From NCBI GenBank assembly GCA_000004985.1, contig GG739029.1: a DNA stretch of 10,074 nt; one strand, written 5' to 3'. Of the stretch, positions 1 to 10,074 are shown in pieces. This DNA comes from Naegleria gruberi. Its lineage: Eukaryota. The position numbers and the translations under genes were made by a program. The notes under the pieces were generated by a model. It searched no databases and was not told the DNA's origin. It worked only from the letters and a program-made list of their open reading frames with translations. Within the stretch, counting starts at the first letter, position 1, and each line of letters starts with the position of its first letter.

Positions 1-173
1 CAACCCTAATTTTGATTCCTTTTTCCTGATGATTTTCTTTTTAATTTGTAAATTTTCTCAAAGAATCTTGTTAATAAAATTTCAAAGATGATGAATTTTA
101 CTCAATTTCGTAATAATCTATTTTAGAATGTTAACATGACATGCTTAAATATCTTATAATTGAACAGTGAAGA

Positions 174-192
174 GGGAAGAGACATTAATTAC
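174..192 (+). repeat. 5' terminal inverted repeat (TIR) of the putative transposon
   Basis: GGGAAGAGACATTAATTAC; inverted match 17/19 to 2942-2960. A CAGTG motif lies 5 bp outside at 165-169. Confidence 0.5.
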
Positions 193-206
193 GCAACTTC
201 ATTTTG

Positions 207-223
207 ACCCCACTCGTATGTAA
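207..223 (+). repeat. Subterminal direct repeat, copy 1 (ACCCCACTCGTATGTAA)
   Basis: Perfect 17-mer, repeated at 239-255 with a 32-bp period. A GC-rich motif in an AT-rich leader. Confidence 0.8.
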
Positions 224-238
224 AATAATATGTTATCC

Positions 239-255
239 ACCCCACTCGTATGTAA
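239..255 (+). repeat. Subterminal direct repeat, copy 2 (ACCCCACTCGTATGTAA)
   Basis: Identical to 207-223. Confidence 0.8.
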
Positions 256-278
256 TGTAACTTTATTAAAAATTTTAA

Positions 279-316
279 GAAAAATCAAGCTTCGCTTTCA
301 GCTCGCTTGATTTTTC
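279..316. promoter_or_regulatory. Perfect 12-bp palindrome (GAAAAATCAAGC / GCTTGATTTTTC) with a 14-nt spacer, in the leader immediately upstream of the transposase ATG
   Basis: 279-290 is exactly the reverse complement of 305-316. It could form a DNA cruciform, a dimeric factor site, or a stable 5'-UTR RNA hairpin. Confidence 0.6.
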
Positions 317-369
317 TTTTTTGTAAGCTCAATAAAAAAATTAAAAAAATAATTAAAAAAAAAACCTCA

Positions 370-2838
370 ATGCAACTAACCCTCGACACCAAAACAAAAG
401 CAGTAGCTTCGAAGTGTTTCCACAATAACAGCAATAAAACACCTTACCTTCGATACATGAATGCCTATTGCTATTTCCATCTCACAAATACCAAAAAAGA
501 TATCAGAAGGGAAGCTCTGTTTGAGAAAGCAATTGGCTTTTATAGGAAGGAATTGAAGAGCAAAAATGATGAAATATTACATTTCGTGATCAAAAATTTG
601 GAAGACAATAATAAACAAATGTTTATTATTGATAATTTCCAAATAATTGAATTTTCACTTGAAGGGAGAGGTGTTTTTGACAGTGAAATTGCCAAATATG
701 CTACAACTCCTTCCCACCATTGTCCCAAGCAGGAGAGTTTGGCTAGTGAAATTGAACAACTTTCGAAACAAATTAGTGTTGCCCACACAGTCTATCAATC
801 TTGTGTCGATGTTGTGGGAATGGAATCTATTAAAGAGGAGGCAGAAATCAAACTCAGCAAACTATGTAGAAGTAAGATTGAAAAACAACAAAAACTTCAT
901 CAATATAAGGACAGAGCTTTATACATGAAATTATATAGAAGAAGAACAGTGGCTATCAAGCACAAAACAATAGGCAGGCCTAGTAAGGTTGGCAATATCG
1001 CAGAATTGTTAAAAACTACCCTGCCAGCAGATTACAGCGAAGCACATCCTCGCCGAAGAGATGGCCATATCTACACCTTGGCCAATGGTGTTGAGGTTAT
1101 CAAAGAAGGAATTGCTCTTATTAAGAACAAAACTGGGATAACGTACTCACCTTCTACTTTAAAACGTTTTTTTGTGGGGAAAAGAAAAACAAAAGCATTC
1201 AAGTTGAAGTCTAAGGATGCTTTTATTCGCGTAATGAAAATCAGAAGCAACAGAATGATTGAACACAAGGACAAACATATTGCGTGTGCGTTGATGAAAT
1301 ATATTCGTGAACTTGCTTTCAAATTAGATGATGATGTTACAGTGGTATCCGTTGACCAAAAGGCAAAGATTTATACTAAGGGTCCTGCTGTGAGTAAATC
1401 TACTGCTGTTGCTGTTGACTCATCATTAACAAGATCAAAACTACCAGCCCTTCCAGACCACAACTTCGGCAACACTAAGGAAAATAGTGTTACACCGAAT
1501 GTAATGTCAGTATTAAGAGTTTCTAAGGAAGGGAATAACATTACTTGGAAAAGACAATGCGTGCTTGTAAGGTTGCGCAGTAGTTGTAATGATGATAGAT
1601 TTTCGCATCTAGATGACCTTGAATGGTTTTTTGAAGAACTAAAACTCCGTAATTTATTACACGGAAACGTTATTATGATCACAGATAATGGGCCTAAAGT
1701 GCAACCAAGAAACAGGAAAGTTCAATCTGAAGCATATTACATTTTCAAAAAATACAATCTTGATTCATTAATTCAGTGCTCCTATAGTCCACATGCATCT
1801 GCTTTGAATCCAGTTGAGAAAGACCATTTCCCAATCTCAAAGAAGCTTGCTGGTTTATTCGATATAGATAAGGAGATATATGGATCGTCCAAAGAGCCCC
1901 AAAAAAGACAAAAGAATCACAATGTTGTGTTGAAGCAATTGTGTTTACTTATTAATGAAATACCATCATACCACTGCACATACGTCCCCACCAACCAAAA
2001 TTCAATTCCAAACACTCTGCCTTCTTGGCCAACTTGGGAAAATATTTTTTCCTTTTTGGAGGGAAAGGAAACAGAAGAGGATTGCTTGATCAAGAAATTA
2101 ATTAAGGATATTCATTACCTTAGTAGAGATGGTAATGGATTGTACACTTTTGTAATTAGAAAGGAAGATTCATCAACAACATTTTACCAACAGCTAGCAC
2201 AATACAATGGCTTCATACCTCACCCCATCCCTGACAAAAATAACCAAAGAAAAAACAATGAAGACTATCCCAACGACGATAATCTTCATTATTGTTTATT
2301 CGAAGATAGATTGAAAGATAATTCCATAGCCTTAAATTTACATTTCCCTTCATACCAACAATATGGAACCAAATTTATTTGCAAGTATTGTAAAAGATTT
2401 CATTATAGTGAGAAAGAATTGGAAGTTCATGCTAAATGTTGTGAAAAGACTTTATCAAATATAGAAGATGATTCATTGGAGTTACATGAAAAACAAACCA
2501 AACCAAACATTTTTTCAATTCCTGGACGAACATTGAATCATGCATTTTCACAATGTGTCACAGAAACTCTTCCGAGAAGAACAAAGAAGAGATCGTATAT
2601 TGATGTTGAAGAAGAACATGAAGAAGAATATCAAGAACAAGAATTGGAACAATCAGCAGATTATGATCAAGAACAAGAGAAGGAATTGGAACAAGAGAAA
2701 GAATTGGAACAAGAAGAGGAACCATTAAAGAAAAAGAAACGTGGTAGACCAAAGAAATCACAATTCAAAGAACCAATGAAATCTCAAGTTGAAGAAGCAG
2801 TAAAGAGAAAGCCTGGTAGACCACGAAAGAAGAAATAA
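370..2838 (+). CDS. Tc1/mariner-like DDE transposase, 822 aa from the first ATG. It has a C-terminal C2H2/C2HC-like zinc finger, an acidic E/Q-rich stretch and two AT-hooks.
   Basis: Uninterrupted ORF. The track ORF 307..2838 starts at a non-ATG upstream codon; the first ATG is at 370 after an A-rich leader. Motifs: KTIGRPSK (GRP linker), HTH-like GITYSPSTLKRFF, first D in VVSVDQKAK (GAC 1354-1356), second D in IMITDNGP (GAT 1684-1686), and SYSPHASALNPVE with E at 1816-1818 (compare Tc1 YSPDLNPIE). The D-to-E spacing is 43 residues by manual count. C-terminus: FICKYCKRFHYSEKELEVHAKCC (C-x2-C-x12-H-x3-C, about 2380-2448), acidic run EEEHEEEYQEQELEQ...EQEEE (2596-2724), and AT-hooks KRGRPKK (2737-2757) and KPGRPRK (2809-2829). 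Confidence 0.75.
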   Translation: MQLTLDTKTKAVASKCFHNNSNKTPYLRYMNAYCYFHLTNTKKDIRREALFEKAIGFYRKELKSKNDEILHFVIKNLEDNNKQMFIIDNFQIIEFSLEGRGVFDSEIAKYATTPSHHCPKQESLASEIEQLSKQISVAHTVYQSCVDVVGMESIKEEAEIKLSKLCRSKIEKQQKLHQYKDRALYMKLYRRRTVAIKHKTIGRPSKVGNIAELLKTTLPADYSEAHPRRRDGHIYTLANGVEVIKEGIALIKNKTGITYSPSTLKRFFVGKRKTKAFKLKSKDAFIRVMKIRSNRMIEHKDKHIACALMKYIRELAFKLDDDVTVVSVDQKAKIYTKGPAVSKSTAVAVDSSLTRSKLPALPDHNFGNTKENSVTPNVMSVLRVSKEGNNITWKRQCVLVRLRSSCNDDRFSHLDDLEWFFEELKLRNLLHGNVIMITDNGPKVQPRNRKVQSEAYYIFKKYNLDSLIQCSYSPHASALNPVEKDHFPISKKLAGLFDIDKEIYGSSKEPQKRQKNHNVVLKQLCLLINEIPSYHCTYVPTNQNSIPNTLPSWPTWENIFSFLEGKETEEDCLIKKLIKDIHYLSRDGNGLYTFVIRKEDSSTTFYQQLAQYNGFIPHPIPDKNNQRKNNEDYPNDDNLHYCLFEDRLKDNSIALNLHFPSYQQYGTKFICKYCKRFHYSEKELEVHAKCCEKTLSNIEDDSLELHEKQTKPNIFSIPGRTLNHAFSQCVTETLPRRTKKRSYIDVEEEHEEEYQEQELEQSADYDQEQEKELEQEKELEQEEEPLKKKKRGRPKKSQFKEPMKSQVEEAVKRKPGRPRKKK
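2641..2718 (+). repeat. Coding tandem repeat, 18-bp unit GAATTGGAACAAGAGAAA (E-L-E-Q-E-K), inside the acidic region of the transposase ORF
   Basis: GAATTGGAACAA occurs at 2641, 2683 and 2701. The copies at 2683-2700 and 2701-2718 are in perfect 18-bp register. Confidence 0.6.
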
Positions 2839-2927
2839 TTAAATAAATAATGTTGTTTACCCCCCCAATTATTTCGTAATTTTCTGGCCAACACCCCTAA
2901 ATAAAAAGTAAGATTTCTACCCCTCCT

Positions 2928-2939
2928 CCCCACTTGTAA
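2928..2939 (+). repeat. Degenerate third copy of the CCCCACTYGTA motif, just inside the 3' TIR
   Basis: CCCCACTTGTAA shares 10/11 with the CCCCACTCGTA core of the two 5' copies, in the same orientation. It sits 3 bp inside the 3' TIR. Confidence 0.35.
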
Positions 2940-2941
2940 CA

Positions 2942-2960
2942 GTAATTTGTGTCTCTTCCC
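2942..2960 (-). repeat. 3' terminal inverted repeat (TIR) of the putative transposon
   Basis: Plus strand GTAATTTGTGTCTCTTCCC; its reverse complement GGGAAGAGACACAAATTAC matches 174-192 at 17/19. Confidence 0.5.
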
Positions 2961-3069
2961 AGAATTGATAGGTCGAAATCCTTGGACAATTTATTGATGA
3001 ACACTGACGGATGTCTACCAAATAGTAGGCACAGGCAAGTACCTTACAATATGTGGCTAGTCAACTAAC

Positions 3070-3117
3070 ACTTGATTGATATGCTTCAAGAGACATAAAA
3101 CCTGTCATCAATCAAGT
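3070..3117. promoter_or_regulatory. 11-bp inverted repeat (ACTTGATTGAT / ATCAATCAAGT) with a 26-bp spacer in the IQG1-like promoter
   Basis: 3070-3080 is the reverse complement of 3107-3117. It lies about 180-220 bp upstream of the ATG at 3294. It shares the ATCAAG/CTTGAT core with the palindrome at 279-316. Confidence 0.4.
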
Positions 3118-3274
3118 TTCACAGCAAACAAGAAAACTCATCAAAAAAAAAACAAAATTGTTGTGGTGTTGGTTGTTGCCCATCCCAAAAACCTGTGCTG
3201 TACATTTTCCACATTAGAAACAAAGATTGACAAGTTAACCACTCGTCATTCAACAACAACACATTACAACAATA

Positions 3275-3283
3275 TATATAATA
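3275..3283 (+). promoter_or_regulatory. TATA-like element (TATATATAA) upstream of the IQG1-like ATG
   Basis: A TATATATAA run ends 11 bp before the ATG at 3294. Spacing is short for a canonical yeast TATA, so this is a weak call. Confidence 0.25.
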
Positions 3284-3293
3284 GATTTGTAAG

Positions 3294-3606
3294 ATGTCTG
3301 TCACCAAGATGGATCTCTCCATTGCGGAGAAGAAAGCCTACGACTTTCTTATTCGTCAGGAAGAAGCCAAACGTTGGATTGAAGAACTTATCCAAGAAAG
3401 TCTGCCTCCAGGCACTGCTAACTTTGGTGATAACTTGAGAGATGGTATTGCTTTGGCCAAGTTGGGTAAAATCTTTGCTCCAACAGCAATTAAGAAGATT
3501 AACACTCCAAAGTCAGGAAGTGTTTTGGAATTTATGGCTGTTGATAACATTTCCCAATTCTTTGAAGCATGTAAGAAGGTTAATTTCCCTGATCACTATA
3601 TTTTTG
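3294..3606 (+). CDS. IQG1: IQGAP-family protein (Iqg1-like), exon 1, encoding the first half of the calponin-homology (CH) domain
   Basis: Translation MSVTKMDLSIAEKKAYDFLIRQEEAKRWIEELIQESLPPGTANFGDNLRDGIALAKLGKIFAPTAIKK... aligns by eye with the IQGAP1 CH domain: EEAKRW, LPP, LRNGVYLAKLGNFFSP. The exon ends in phase 1 at G3606, immediately before GTATGT. Confidence 0.8.
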
Positions 3607-3836
3607 GTATGTGTTATAATAGTAACAGTTTTTATTCTAATCTATTATGTTCATATTGTTATTCAACTCGTATGATGATGATAATTTGTTGTTGTTATTC
3701 CTTACTTGCTGATTTCCCTCGCTTTTTTCATCAAATCACAAAAAATAATCATCACAAAAATAATGTTCTTCCTCCTATGATGATGGTGAATGATAATGTT
3801 ATTGTTGCTTGTTCTTGATAATATTAACTTTAACAG
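3607..3836 (+). other. Spliceosomal intron (230 nt) in the IQG1-like gene
   Basis: 5' GTATGT at 3607-3612, 3' ...TTTAACAG at 3829-3836. The candidate branch point TATTAAC at 3822-3828 is non-canonical against TACTAAC. The frame-0 continuation is low-complexity and stops at 3818. Splicing restores the conserved CH-domain sequence ...HYIF-E-VTDLWELKN.... Confidence 0.7.
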
Positions 3837-3952
3837 AGGTTACCGATTTGTGGGAATTGAAAAACGTTTGGAAAGTTGTTCACTGCTTACACACACTCTC
3901 CCTCCACTTGTATAGAAATGGCTTGGCCATTAGAATGCAAAACTTGCAAAAG
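3837..3952 (+). CDS. IQG1: IQGAP-family protein (Iqg1-like), exon 2 (partial), running into the N-run
   Basis: After splicing, g3606+ag3837-38 gives E, then VTDLWELKNVWKVVHCLHTLSLHLYRNGLAIRMQNLQK. This matches the second half of the IQGAP CH domain (human IQGAP1 ...DIYDRKNMPRCIYCIHALSLYLFKLGLAPQIQDL). The ORF continues into Ns at 3953. Confidence 0.75.
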
Positions 3953-5196: not shown

Positions 5197-5250
5197 GAAA
5201 GAGATTATTAAAGTGATGAACAAATCTTGACAATATTAAATCAGTATAGC
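5197..5250 (+). repeat. Copy 1 of a duplicated segment, the paralog of 10021-10074
   Basis: GAAAGAGATTATTAAAGTGATGAACAAATCTTGACAATATTAAATCAGTATAGC vs GAAAGAGATTATTTAAGTGATGAACAAATCTTGACAATATTAAATCAGTATAGC. The single difference is A5210 vs T10034. The duplication probably extends in both directions, beyond the N-run and beyond the window. Confidence 0.85.
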
Positions 5251-5763
5251 CAGTCAATTTTGGATAATGACAATTCCTTTGGAATAGCATGTCAACTATT
5301 AACAAGACTTTTCCAAGAAGTCGAGTGCAACAAACTGAGTGATGTTATTGTAAAATTAAGTGAAAAGTATTATAAGGAAATATCACCTGACATTTTAAGA
5401 ACATACACTAATTGTTTCACATTAAGAGAAGGAGTAGAACTTACTAATATTAAAGATTTTGAAGGGAGACTAAAACTCGATAACGCTATACAAAAATTTA
5501 TGGACATGATTATTGATCCTAAATGGGGAATCAAAAATACTTTCACAAACTTATTAATTACATCGATTAGTGTTTATGAAAGGAAAGTTTTGGATTGCGA
5601 TAAATTCAAGAAAGTGTTGACTCATATCACTGATCGATTAGAAAATCCATCAATGAATCCTACAACCTCATTCAGTTTTCTGGAACCCTCAACAGACTTC
5701 CCCGATTACTGGGAACTAGTAAAAACCATTGAAGAACTGAAAAAGCTAACGAAAAAGCTATGA
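5197..5763 (+). CDS. 3' end of kinase-like paralog copy 1 (its 5' part is lost in the N-run). A 184-aa C-terminal extension region, interrupted by an in-frame TAA at 5209-5211.
   Basis: In frame 1, 5197-5208 encodes E-R-D-Y, then TAA, then an open frame to TGA 5761-5763 (SDEQILTILNQYSQSILDND...KKLTKKL). 5197-5250 is 53/54 identical to 10021-10074, the tail of the kinase-like gene at the window end. There the same codon is TTA (Leu) and the frame stays open. The track ORF 5227..5763 starts at TTG, which is not a eukaryotic start. Confidence 0.5.
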
Positions 5764-6424
5764 AAACTTTCTACCTTTTACGGATGTGGTTAAAACTATT
5801 TCGATCAATTGTAATGAAACAATTTGTAAAGGTTAGAATTTAAATCAATTTTTCACAATTTTTTGGTCACTGTTTTAAATTACCTTAAGCCTATTTTTAA
5901 TGAAACTTCCTTGTTTTGTAATAGTTATGTTTCTAACTTGATTAGTGAGCTGTGAGCCTGGAATTTTGATTTCTGACGATGCAAGGTAATCAGTCTTGCA
6001 AACACTAGTGGAGGCTGACAAATCATCTTAATAGTTTCATACCTTTTTGGACAGAGGTTGGCTCTTCCAATACTTCTTCAGATTCCTCCTTTCTAGGTTT
6101 CTTACCAGACTTTCCATAAACCTTAGCAGATTTCTTTTCTTCAAATAGTCCAGTTACTAGTCCTAAGAGTTACCTTCATAGCAATGCAAGGTTGAATAAA
6201 CCAAACTTGCTTTATCGAATTGAGTTGTGAGTAACTTCTCAAATCGGACGGGGTGAGTGCATGAATCGGGATATGGTCGTACCAATTCATCTTTTGAAGG
6301 AATTTGATATGGCCTTTTTATATTATATTTATATTAATTATAATAAATTCTGAAGCAATATACTTGTATCACCAAATTAATTGCGATCATCAATTGTTGA
6401 AAGAGTGGCACTAACAATCATTTA

Positions 6425-9106
6425 TTACCTCTTTAATACACAATCACTGAAATCAACATCTTTAACACTGTACTTAATATGAGTGATGGAATCTTGATCT
6501 CTTCCTCCATTAGTTGTGAAGAATCCATTCTCTTTGACTCCTGTAGAATCAAAAGTAAGACAAATTTCATCCTCCCCAACCAAAACAAATGACCTATCAA
6601 ATGCCTTCAAAAGCCAAAAATCACTTTGACCTGCCTCAATGTCAAAATATTTGATATGTTCAAGAAAATGACAAAATTCATCCAACGATTTTCTATTCTC
6701 GAATGTAATGTTCTTCAAACCAATATAAGGGTTTGTAATGTTGCATGTTTTAAATAATGTTGCCAAATTTTCATTCACAAAGAAAGTTCTGTCAGTTTCT
6801 CCTCTTTTCAATTTGTCAAAATAAATTTTGAAAGATTCACTCACTGGAAGTGTCAAATTCAATGCCTCTAATAAATCTGAAACGAAATGTTGGCAATTAG
6901 CCCCTAATAATGAATAATTCTTGGTTGCATTGTAATTGCATGAAATTTTTGTAATCAATTCGAATGCCTTCTTGACATTGTCAGCTCCAGCAATTTCTCC
7001 AATATCAATGGCTGCAATGGTATTATTAGTATCAAGTTTCTGGTCTGAATCGCACTCAACTCTCACCAATGAATTATCATACCATTCAATTTTCCATTCT
7101 CCAATTAAGATTCCTGTGTGAACAACGCCATAATTATTTACATTAAGAATGGCTGCGAATGTAGCCATTGCCTTCTTGGTTAATTCGTGTTTTCCTAAAG
7201 ATGAAACCAATAACTTGACTCTCACAACTGCAGGAATATTGGAAACAATTCTTGAATTTTTCTTCATTGTAGGACGAACAAAGTGAAAATGCATGAATCT
7301 GTCTTCACAGACATATCTTTGAGCTTCCAAATCTAAACTTTCACTGTATCCGACCTTCTCTGGTGTAATGTTGAATTCTTTAAGGCATACTCTAATCTTT
7401 TTCTTGGCCATCTCAACACCTTTAAATTCGGCTTGTGATAATCTCCAGCTTTCTATTGGAATTTGAACATCATATTCTTGATTTTCATTCTCTACACCAT
7501 AAGATTCAGAGGTAACATATGGCCTAGTACTATTATTACATAACTTTAAGAAAGTACTTGTAGTTGTTGGACCATTGGAATCTCTTAAAGTTTTAGAGAA
7601 TGCTCGGTCAACCTTGCCATTCCTTAAATTATCAAAATACTTGTCAAAGCATTCACTCTTTGGAAGTTGCAAATTCAAAGCAGATAGTACCTCAGATGTG
7701 AAATGTTGGCAATTGGCTTTGAATTGGTGATATTGAACTGATCCATTATATTTACAAATAATTTCTGTCAACTTTCTAAATGTTTGCTTAACATTTTCAG
7801 CACCACGTATTTCTCCAATGTCAATTATTGCAAGTGTCTTGTCAGATTCGATTTGTTCACTCCTTATACTAACAGTTGATGAGTTGACCCATTCAATCTT
7901 CCATTCACCAATTAAAAGGCCAGTATGAACAATTCCCATATCAGCATTTGAAAAGTAGCTCATTAACTTGGTCATAAAAGGACTATTACCTAAATCAGAA
8001 ATCAACAACTTGACTCGCAGAAATGGTTCACAATTAACTTTGTTTGATTTTAGGTTTACAATAGAACTCATAAATTCCCTATTTAGTAATCTATCTTCAC
8101 AGACCAAGTTTTGGGCATCCACTTCCAAATCGCCTGTCATTCTAGCATCTTTGGGAGTTCTATTATTCTTTTTCAAGAAATCATAATATTTCTCTAACTT
8201 TTTCTTGACCGTTTCAACCCGATCCCTTTCTAAAAATGTTAGTGCAGTTTTAATAACAGCAGGTGGTGGAATACCTGCCTCTGATGGATTTGTAACTGAC
8301 AACAAAGCTTTTAAGTGTTCGAGAAGGTTAGAATGTAAACCCATTATCTCCTTCGTTGTTTCGTCAATATATTTTCCCACCCCAATCCGGCGCTTTTCAC
8401 GAATCATCATTTGAGCAAAAGTTTCTCCCTTAATCCTAAGAGGCTGTCTAGTAAGCAATTTGAATAATATACATCCCAAACTAAATAAGTCTGCAGATTT
8501 ATCCACTATTTGAGATGCCAATAATACCTCTGGAGCTGTATACTCATTGCTGTGTCTGAATTCTGATGGCTGGTTGTCTAGCACAGAATATTTGAAATCG
8601 AATAATTTAAATGTAAAGTCCTCTTCGAAAAATAAAATGTTTTCAGGTTTTAAATTTCCATGAATAATATTCATGGAATGTAATTTAAGAAGTCCTTTTT
8701 CTATTTGACTATAAATTTTCAAAGATTCTTCCAAATTAGGTTCATAATAAGTTAAATATTCATTCAAATTACAGGTTCCTTTGGGAGAAATTGAATATTT
8801 CAAAAACATGTCATAATCACCTGTATCCCATATTGGGACAATTTCATGTTGATTTACAATTTGTTGTCTTATTTTTTCATGCTTATTGCATTCGTATTCA
8901 GTTAGTATTGTCATTATTATTTCAGAATTGCCATTACCCGAAACTTGTCTCACTCCATAAAATTTCTCTCCTATAGGAACTTCATATTGTCCAATTTTTT
9001 CAATATTTGCGCAATTTTTTAGCTTCAATATTGATGGATTTTCTTTGATCAAATCCTGTTTGGTTGATACTATTATTTTGGTTTGTGAAGAATGTGACGA
9101 CCCCAT
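6425..9106 (-). CDS. 893-aa multidomain protein with an N-myristoylation motif (MGSSHSS), a degenerate kinase domain, two tandem PPPDE/DeSI-like putative Cys peptidase domains, and a C-terminal region of unknown function
   Basis: Single uninterrupted minus-strand ORF. Kinase-like core: ...NIIHGNLKPENILFF (catalytic-loop HRD replaced by HGN, minus-strand codons 8654-8662), FDFKYS (DFG replaced by DFK), EYTAPEVL (APE), DLFSLGCILFKLL. Two repeats of about 270 aa each carry the PPPDE (PF05903-like) hallmarks: VRVKLL[IV]S.LG, VHTG[IL]LIGEWKIEW (compare DeSI GVFHSGIEVYGREFAYGG), IDIGEI, and ANCQHF (compare DeSI HKNCNHFSSAL). Both retain His, at nt 7925-7927 and 7118-7120, and Cys within NCQHF, at 7700-7714 and 6884-6898. 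Confidence 0.85.
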   Translation of the reverse strand: MGSSHSSQTKIIVSTKQDLIKENPSILKLKNCANIEKIGQYEVPIGEKFYGVRQVSGNGNSEIIMTILTEYECNKHEKIRQQIVNQHEIVPIWDTGDYDMFLKYSISPKGTCNLNEYLTYYEPNLEESLKIYSQIEKGLLKLHSMNIIHGNLKPENILFFEEDFTFKLFDFKYSVLDNQPSEFRHSNEYTAPEVLLASQIVDKSADLFSLGCILFKLLTRQPLRIKGETFAQMMIREKRRIGVGKYIDETTKEIMGLHSNLLEHLKALLSVTNPSEAGIPPPAVIKTALTFLERDRVETVKKKLEKYYDFLKKNNRTPKDARMTGDLEVDAQNLVCEDRLLNREFMSSIVNLKSNKVNCEPFLRVKLLISDLGNSPFMTKLMSYFSNADMGIVHTGLLIGEWKIEWVNSSTVSIRSEQIESDKTLAIIDIGEIRGAENVKQTFRKLTEIICKYNGSVQYHQFKANCQHFTSEVLSALNLQLPKSECFDKYFDNLRNGKVDRAFSKTLRDSNGPTTTSTFLKLCNNSTRPYVTSESYGVENENQEYDVQIPIESWRLSQAEFKGVEMAKKKIRVCLKEFNITPEKVGYSESLDLEAQRYVCEDRFMHFHFVRPTMKKNSRIVSNIPAVVRVKLLVSSLGKHELTKKAMATFAAILNVNNYGVVHTGILIGEWKIEWYDNSLVRVECDSDQKLDTNNTIAAIDIGEIAGADNVKKAFELITKISCNYNATKNYSLLGANCQHFVSDLLEALNLTLPVSESFKIYFDKLKRGETDRTFFVNENLATLFKTCNITNPYIGLKNITFENRKSLDEFCHFLEHIKYFDIEAGQSDFWLLKAFDRSFVLVGEDEICLTFDSTGVKENGFFTTNGGRDQDSITHIKYSVKDVDFSDCVLKR
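6845..7228 (-). other. PPPDE/DeSI-like domain 2 (aa about 627-754)
   Basis: VVRVKLLVSSLG...GVVHTGILIGEWKIEW...AAIDIGEIAGADNV...GANCQHFVSDLLEALNL. Confidence 0.7.
7661..8023 (-). other. PPPDE/DeSI-like domain 1 (aa about 362-482)
   Basis: FLRVKLLISDLG...GIVHTGLLIGEWKIEW...AIIDIGEIRGAENV...KANCQHFTSEVLSALNL. Confidence 0.7.
8207..9001 (-). other. Degenerate (pseudo)kinase domain of the 893-aa protein
   Basis: Roughly aa 36-300. Candidate G-loop remnant IGEKFYGV, HGNLKPEN, DFK, APE. The catalytic Asp of HRD is Asn and the DFG glycine is Lys. Confidence 0.65.
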
Positions 9107-9168
9107 TTTTTTGCAAAATTATTGCTTAAATCTAATAATTATCTAGGACGTGATCAGCAAAAAACAAA

Positions 9169-10074
9169 ATGCCTGTAAATCCGCTAGATTACATTCTATT
9201 AAAACTTGTCTCGTTGTCAATATTTAAAAACGTGGATCATATCAAAACTGTACATTTGAGTGCATCTTGTTACTCTTCTAATTATTTTAGAAAAGTAATG
9301 AGAGTCTATTCGGATAAAGAGGAAACTTGTGTTGTTGTAAAATTTTGCACATCCAACATGCCTAATGATGTTATGAAAGTTTATGATAGAATATGTAATA
9401 TAAACTGTGAATATCTTGTCAAACCAATGTACCGTGGCGAAATAGGTGAATATTATTACTTTATTTTCCCACAAGCAAAATGTGATTTAAAACAATTTCT
9501 TGAATCCTATACGACAGCAAAACAAAAATTACTGATATTCCGTGATGTTTGTTCAGGAGTGAAAGCTCTCCATCTAAATAATATCACTCATTGTGATTTA
9601 AAATCGGAAAATGTTTTAATATTTGAGGAGAATGGTCAAATAATTGCCAAGTTGACAGATTTCGATGAAGCCCAAATTTTCGATGAAAATATCACTTCAT
9701 CAACTATTCCGTGCCAGTCGCATTTCTTTAGATCGCCTGAATCTTTTCGTGATGAATTGGAATGCCATAATTTCCCATTGATGGATATGTTTAGTTTGGG
9801 ATGTATTTTGTTTGATTTGTTTCGAGTAACAGAGAGAAAACCATTAGCAGCAATATTTATCAAGTCCAATACAGAAGCAGAAAAATGTGTTAAAGAATCA
9901 ATAGTTGACAATAATCTAAAAGAGCTACTGGTTACTATTTTACTTAAATTAATTACAACCATGGAACAAAGGTTAACTATTAGCGATCTGTTAATCGAAA
10001 TTACACAATTAATCAAAGAAGAAAGAGATTATTTAAGTGATGAACAAATCTTGACAATATTAAATCAGTATAGC
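9169..10074 (+). CDS. Kinase-like protein, a paralog of the N-terminal domain of the minus-strand 893-aa protein. 3'-truncated by the window end. Alternative start at ATG 9298.
   Basis: Frame 1 is open from 9154 to the window end, so no ORF-track entry exists because there is no stop. ATG at 9169 (MPVNPLDY...) lies only 62 bp from the divergent gene's ATG. ATG at 9298 (MRVYSDKEETCVVVKF...) lies 191 bp away and may be the true start. Motifs: HCDLKSENVL (9589-9612, catalytic Asp retained), TDFDEA (DFG replaced by DFD, 9658-9666), RSPESF (APE-like), DMFSLGCILFDLF (compare DLFSLGCILFKLL in the minus-strand gene). No recognisable glycine-rich loop. Confidence 0.75.
   Translation, partial: MPVNPLDYILLKLVSLSIFKNVDHIKTVHLSASCYSSNYFRKVMRVYSDKEETCVVVKFCTSNMPNDVMKVYDRICNINCEYLVKPMYRGEIGEYYYFIFPQAKCDLKQFLESYTTAKQKLLIFRDVCSGVKALHLNNITHCDLKSENVLIFEENGQIIAKLTDFDEAQIFDENITSSTIPCQSHFFRSPESFRDELECHNFPLMDMFSLGCILFDLFRVTERKPLAAIFIKSNTEAEKCVKESIVDNNLKELLVTILLKLITTMEQRLTISDLLIEITQLIKEERDYLSDEQILTILNQYS
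10021..10074 (+). repeat. Copy 2 of the duplicated segment, the paralog of 5197-5250
   Basis: See 5197-5250. Truncated by the window end. Confidence 0.85.

Follow-up and report, generated by a model that had tools for sequence, protein, structure and literature searches.

The apparent duplication of a kinase-like gene on this Naegleria gruberi scaffold, with an in-frame stop in one of the two copies, is probably an assembly-edge artefact, in which a contig wraps around onto itself and an error, or a variant that belongs to neither copy in particular, stands at its edge. The window, i.e., the whole stretch of 10,074 bp analysed here, is an entire scaffold of the Sanger draft of N. gruberi NEG-M, and the public record stops at its last base (10074). 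This draft of 40.9 Mb (35% G+C) was assembled from Sanger reads and consists of 1,977 contigs in 784 scaffolds (PMC9928731 Table 1; PMC6125883 Table 1). An earlier note, made from the letters of the window, had described two copies of the kinase-like gene on either side of a gene that fuses a kinase-like domain with PPPDE domains, one copy carrying TAA where the other has TTA. The features on which our re-examination is based are collected in Table 1.

Table 1. Features of the 10,074-bp scaffold, in window coordinates
Feature	Position	Strand	Remark
Contig A	1-3952		
Assembly gap, 1,244 N, between contig A and contig B	3953..5196		
Contig B, 4,878 bp	5197-10074		
Left end of contig B ("copy 1"), 54 nt	5197..5250	+	53/54 identical to scaffold right end
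In-frame TAA	5209..5211	+	A5210, 14 nt from gap edge
Tail ORF, 183 codons + TGA (5761-5763)	5212..5763	+	Coding-type codon usage; without Pfam family
Spacer, 661 nt, tail ORF to fusion-gene 3' end	5764..6424		No convincing ORF
Fusion gene: kinase-like domain + two PPPDE/Peptidase_C97 domains, XP_002668523.1, NAEGRDRAFT_54750, 893 aa	6425..9106	-	
Divergent intergenic region, 62 nt, fusion-gene start codon to kinase-head start codon	9107..9168		
Head ORF, 302 codons, runs off record end	9169..10074	+	Pkinase domain
Right end of contig B and scaffold ("copy 2"), 54 nt	10021..10074	+	TTA (Leu) at 10033-10035

The position of the two copies is the first piece of evidence. Copy 1 opens at the very first base of contig B, directly after the run of N, and copy 2 closes at the last base of both contig B and the public record. 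The two ends of contig B therefore share 54 nt, which gives the contig a period of 4,824 bp. Since the repeat has assembly ends on both sides, it is bounded by the assembly and not by biology. An ungapped alignment of both ends gave 53 identical positions out of 54, a match for which the chance expectation within the window is about 6e-21, and the sole mismatch is A5210 vs. T10034. Thus the identity and the exchange of a leucine codon for a stop were seen by us exactly as they had been noted before. Read in the same frame as the kinase ORF (start codon ATG 9169), copy 2 translates as ERDYLSDEQILTILNQYS and copy 1 as ERDY*SDEQILTILNQYS. The observation that this frame stays open beyond the TAA holds as well: 183 sense codons follow before the TGA is reached.

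The second piece of evidence is that head and tail fit together. If the head (9169-10074) is continued through the overlap into the tail (5251-5763), an ORF of 1,419 nt results, which equals 472 codons with a single terminal stop. Judged from its sequence, this composite ORF would be one intact gene that encodes a divergent protein kinase extended by an orphan C-terminal domain. Because head and tail fit one 472-codon gene, the drawn order of copy 1, fusion gene and copy 2 cannot be taken as established, and the proposed duplication of the kinase gene on both sides of the PPPDE-fusion gene comes down to 54 nt. Elsewhere in the window, neither head nor tail found a second match.

The head itself is recognizable as a kinase. 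Its residues 42-273 match Pkinase (PF00069) with 76.1 bits, the gathering cut-off being 31.7, and its catalytic loop HCDLKSEN aligns with HCDLKPEN of DYRK2, so that the catalytic-loop Asp and Asn (HRDLKxxN) are present. Among solved structures, DYRK2, MAPKAPK2/3 and CDK4 are the best matches. In contrast to typical eukaryotic protein kinases (PF00069), the head carries DFD instead of DFG and is followed by the 183-residue orphan C-terminal domain; in addition, SPE replaces APE, and no GxGxxG glycine loop was seen on reading residues 1-60. The head thus belongs to the eukaryotic protein kinase superfamily, as a divergent member whose activity is uncertain given that the canonical DFG and the glycine loop are absent. 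The exact 302-aa head sequence is absent from the protein collection, and exact look-ups of the 302-aa head and of a 178-aa tail ORF found neither of them annotated as the real kinase gene.

The tail is coding sequence. While its frame is open, the remaining five frames of 5197-5763 contain 8-21 stops each; the probability of 183 codons without a stop is about 8e-7, and none of 20,000 shuffled sequences stayed open. Codon usage of 5212-5760 scores +0.19 bit per codon in frame against -0.18 to -0.65 in the remaining five frames, and the other genes of the window range from +0.12 to +0.33 in their frames. An exhaustive HMMER scan with the tail (5212-5760) against 1.84 billion representative proteins delivered one real hit, XP_002668522.1, which derives from this very scaffold. 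A second match, a repeat protein with 37 bits, was taken as spurious. The word-index protein search with tail plus junction as query likewise returned XP_002668522.1 alone. By these searches, the tail is an orphan C-terminal domain without homologue outside this scaffold. An AlphaFold2 single-sequence model of the composite protein is unusable (mean pLDDT 36.7), and it is the only source for a helical tail.

For the end of a contig to repeat its beginning, there must be a tandem repeat, a circle or a pair of near-identical copies on either side of the middle segment. We suggest that a near-identical repeat (the 4.8-kb unit in a tandem array, or one gene copy on each side of the fusion gene) was piled up in one layout, whereupon the right end of contig B would meet its own left end and the collapsed layout would be cut at its weakest overlap. 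Such a repeat collapse, read here from the consensus, is the best reading of the scaffold. Known signatures of this type of mis-assembly are wrap-around reads and mate pairs and the excision of the sequence between two collapsed copies (PMC2397507). With the collapsed repeat as treated in 'Genome assembly forensics' (Phillippy et al. 2008, PMC2397507), the scaffold shares a consensus that wraps around, one contig end continuing into the other, a gap and a scaffold end at the very points at which the repeat should go on, and a neighboring gene content that does not fit the estimated gap. However, collapsed repeats are defined there by doubled depth, by compressed or mis-oriented mate pairs and by partially aligning reads, whereas the present case is known from the consensus. 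In addition, contig B spans the two gene boundaries (5763/5764 and 9168/9169) unbroken, and its break falls inside a gene; this would suit an arbitrary cut in a cyclic layout rather than a break at a repeat boundary.

The single mismatch can be explained within the same scenario. The reads beneath both ends of contig B would be a mixture of copies, alleles or haplotypes, and with mixed reads under either end even a real variant is not assignable to copy 1. Most likely, the A5210/T10034 difference is either a base-call error or a variant that can be assigned to neither copy. We read A5210 as an error because it lies so close to the gap edge and at the boundary of a T/A run; the local context is TTATTAAAG at 5210 vs. 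TTATTTAAG at the other end, i.e., the run boundary is shifted. Contig ends in a Sanger assembly are typically covered by one or a few read tails, and the coverage of the NEG-M assembly is presumably about 8x. Coverage and quality would be lowest near the gap edge and thus around A5210. Furthermore, 14 of the 162 single substitutions that are possible in the 18 codons of the overlap (8.6%) give a stop, so that a random error yielding one is unremarkable. Among the three readings previously offered for the TAA (a very recent nonsense mutation, a sequencing or assembly error beside the gap, and tolerated readthrough), the error fits best, given the distance to the gap, the T/A run boundary and the fact that both sequences are ends of the same contig.

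Two points nevertheless speak against the artefact. First, T10034 is located near an end as well, 41 nt from the end of the record. Second, separately assembled copies that break near the same homologous point would also yield a 54-nt overlap; by a rough estimate, the chance of independent breaks coinciding within 54 nt of a 1.4-kb gene is about 4-8%. Besides, N. gruberi NEG-M has been reported to be heterozygous (PMC9928731), and consequently a real SNP, be it allelic or between paralogues, is plausible.

The gene at the other side of the gap does not fit the scaffold as drawn either. A calponin homology (CH) gene occupies 3294-3952 (+) of the window, runs into the gap at 3952 and constitutes the 5' end of an IQGAP-like gene. 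At the homologous locus of a related organism (L003, 93-5365), the CH gene opens an ORF of about 1,750 aa and continues into an ORF of 1,608 aa with Filamin, RasGAP and RasGAP_C domains. Judged from this homologue, about 4.8 kb of the CH/IQGAP-like gene are absent from the scaffold, and a gap of 1,244 N is too small for this remainder together with the missing 852 nt of a kinase head. Either the gap size is wrong, or the join between contigs A and B is wrong, or the CH gene is a truncated copy.

The annotation has bridged this gap. The protein XP_002668522.1 / EFC35778.1, a 'calponin homology domain-containing protein', is a chimeric gene model, in which the CH exon 3309-3606 is spliced over the 1,244 N to 5288-5763 (+) and thereby to the final 158 codons of the kinase tail. 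In reality, the CH gene has its intron at 3607-3836, and its exon 2 starts with EVTDLWELKN. Two ENA metagenome contigs match the CH region, namely L001 (653 bp, ERZ929261) with 99% nucleotide identity, where the intron and the stretch before the start codon have small indels, and L002 (787 bp, ERZ27250632) with 95% amino-acid identity. These matches indicate N. gruberi-like amoebae in both samples, while the contigs do not cover the kinase locus.

The scaffold has further features. The kinase domain of the fusion gene is 29% identical to the head (E = 2e-13). In its N-terminal kinase-like domain, NAEGRDRAFT_54750 has HGN for HRD, and hence lacks the catalytic Asp, and DFK for DFG; from these motifs, the domain is probably a pseudokinase. 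The region between the divergent start codons of fusion gene and head contains 24% G+C and presumably acts as a very compact bidirectional promoter. On contig A, an ORF of 822 codons (370-2838, +) without Pfam family shows a Cys/His zinc-finger-like motif (CKYCKRFHYSEKELEVHAKCC), acidic EQELEQ repeats and C-terminal GRP AT-hook-like motifs; the exact ORF is absent from the protein collection, and it may be derived from a mobile element. Upstream of it, at 207-260, two direct copies of ACCCCACTCGTATGTAA lie 32 nt apart. The Rfam scan of the window for RNA families gave no matches.

If the layout is taken as drawn, two recent kinase copies flank the fusion gene and copy 1 is a nascent pseudogene caused by a very recent change from TTA to TAA, an explanation that we consider rather unlikely. 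It requires the head of copy 1 to lie inside the gap and the tail of copy 2 beyond the scaffold end, and the nonsense mutation would truncate the protein at residue 288 of 472. The 53/54 identity and the otherwise open and codon-biased frame past the stop agree with this, the missing head of 852 nt would by itself fit into the 1,244-N gap, and N. gruberi possesses many lineage-specific families (626 OrthoMCL families are specific; PMC6125883). However, the reading hinges on one base that stands 14 nt from the gap edge, and it demands that two independent assembly breaks coincide within 54 nt. No second head or tail is visible, neither in the window nor, for the tail, among the 1.84 billion representative proteins, and a first head placed in the gap leaves no room for the rest of the CH/IQGAP-like gene. 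Moreover, copies that are about 98-100% identical are normally not separated by a Sanger whole-genome assembler, and if such copies are not kept apart, a base is not assignable to a particular one.

Known nascent duplicated pseudogenes likewise show a single premature stop, an open and codon-biased frame and a near-identical sequence with a sense codon nearby. In the present case, however, 'parent' and 'pseudogene' share just 54 observed bases, and the putative disabling base sits at a contig end. Downstream of the TAA, the 183 codons contain no further stop and resemble intact genes in codon usage, so that neither relaxed constraint nor additional lesions are visible. A lesion-free tail would be expected after an error just as much as in a very young pseudogene; no pseudogene is demonstrated. 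Still, the recent duplication that had been proposed may be right in substance, as a tandem or flanking duplication is the likeliest cause of the wrap-around.

Alternatively, A and T could be a true heterozygous polymorphism of one gene or repeat unit, one haplotype having the premature stop and each contig end representing reads of a different haplotype. In line with this view, NEG-M is reported to be heterozygous (PMC9928731). Alternative haplotypes also often end up on small leftover scaffolds when a heterozygous genome is assembled from Sanger reads. We nevertheless regard the view as improbable, because errors at contig ends are a priori commoner than a nonsense allele in a gene whose codon bias is otherwise intact, and because a tandem or circular wrap-around would still be needed to bring head and tail to opposite sides of the fusion gene.

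A circle has been considered as well: contig B might be a circular extrachromosomal element of 4,824 bp that was assembled linearly and wrongly scaffolded to contig A. We know of no such 4.8-kb circular element. Overlapping contig ends usually signal a circle, and Naegleria does have an extrachromosomal circular rDNA plasmid (PMC6125883); however, contig B contains two ordinary protein-coding genes, no replication or rDNA features and no Rfam hit, and it is linked to contig A by mate pairs, which makes this origin very improbable.

Finally, the TAA could be tolerated, either through programmed readthrough or as a sense codon, and copy 1 would then give a full-length protein. Apart from the long open frame after the stop, which a very recent change or an error explains fully, nothing points to this, and we practically dismiss it. 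The two longest ORFs of the window both end in TAA (2836-2838, 6425-6427), and no TAA, TAG or TGA occurs in frame within the 2,120 other codons of four ORFs; on the same grounds, a variant code with sense TAA was rejected, since TAA ends both the ORF 370-2838 and the fusion gene. An A follows the stop; in eukaryotes, TAA-A is regarded as a context of efficient termination, and a stop followed by A is not known to be leaky. Programmed readthrough and ciliate-type TAA reassignment share with our case an in-frame TAA followed by a long open frame, but here TAA is a normal terminator, stands in the TAA-A context and is not conserved, the other end having an ordinary Leu codon. Readthrough, which had already been ranked as the less likely option in the earlier note, is thus unlikely. 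An intron that removes the TAA need not be invoked, as this sequence is open in frame without interruption at the other end. No recoding is needed.

We also searched for an independent sequence across the junction of head and tail. None was found in an index of 5.8 billion proteins, in JGI metagenome contigs (protein-guided and DNA-pattern scans), or in viral contigs and prokaryotic genomes (DNA-pattern scans). Exact look-up of the fusion protein and of XP_002668522.1 in a gene-position index gave no junction-covering sequence, and the word-index protein search with the composite kinase returned distant kinases of at most 48 bits and no junction match. This word-index search missed XP_002668522.1 for two queries that share 95-162 identical residues with it, while a third query recovered it; its negatives are consequently weak, especially for paralogues of the head. 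In the literature, the locus tag, the accession numbers and PRJEB11402 are not mentioned in any paper that we found.

Taken together, the chief import of these results concerns data quality: no biology should be read into the apparent pseudogene or into the order copy 1, fusion gene, copy 2. We would class the finding as a draft-scaffold artefact, which possibly masks a real but unremarkable recent duplication. A practical by-product is the recognition that RefSeq XP_002668522.1 is a chimera, the CH exon and the kinase tail in it coming from unrelated genes. Should reads confirm the repeat, it would add one more recent duplication to the lineage-specific signalling genes of N. gruberi, a modest result. 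There is also some chance, albeit a small one, that the 4.8-kb unit is truly tandem-amplified in NEG-M and that one copy has newly changed from TTA to TAA. In that case, the tandem unit would consist of a Naegleria-specific kinase with an orphan domain, arranged divergently from a gene that fuses a pseudokinase with two PPPDE domains, and the birth-and-death evolution of a lineage-specific signalling gene pair would have been caught at its first step.
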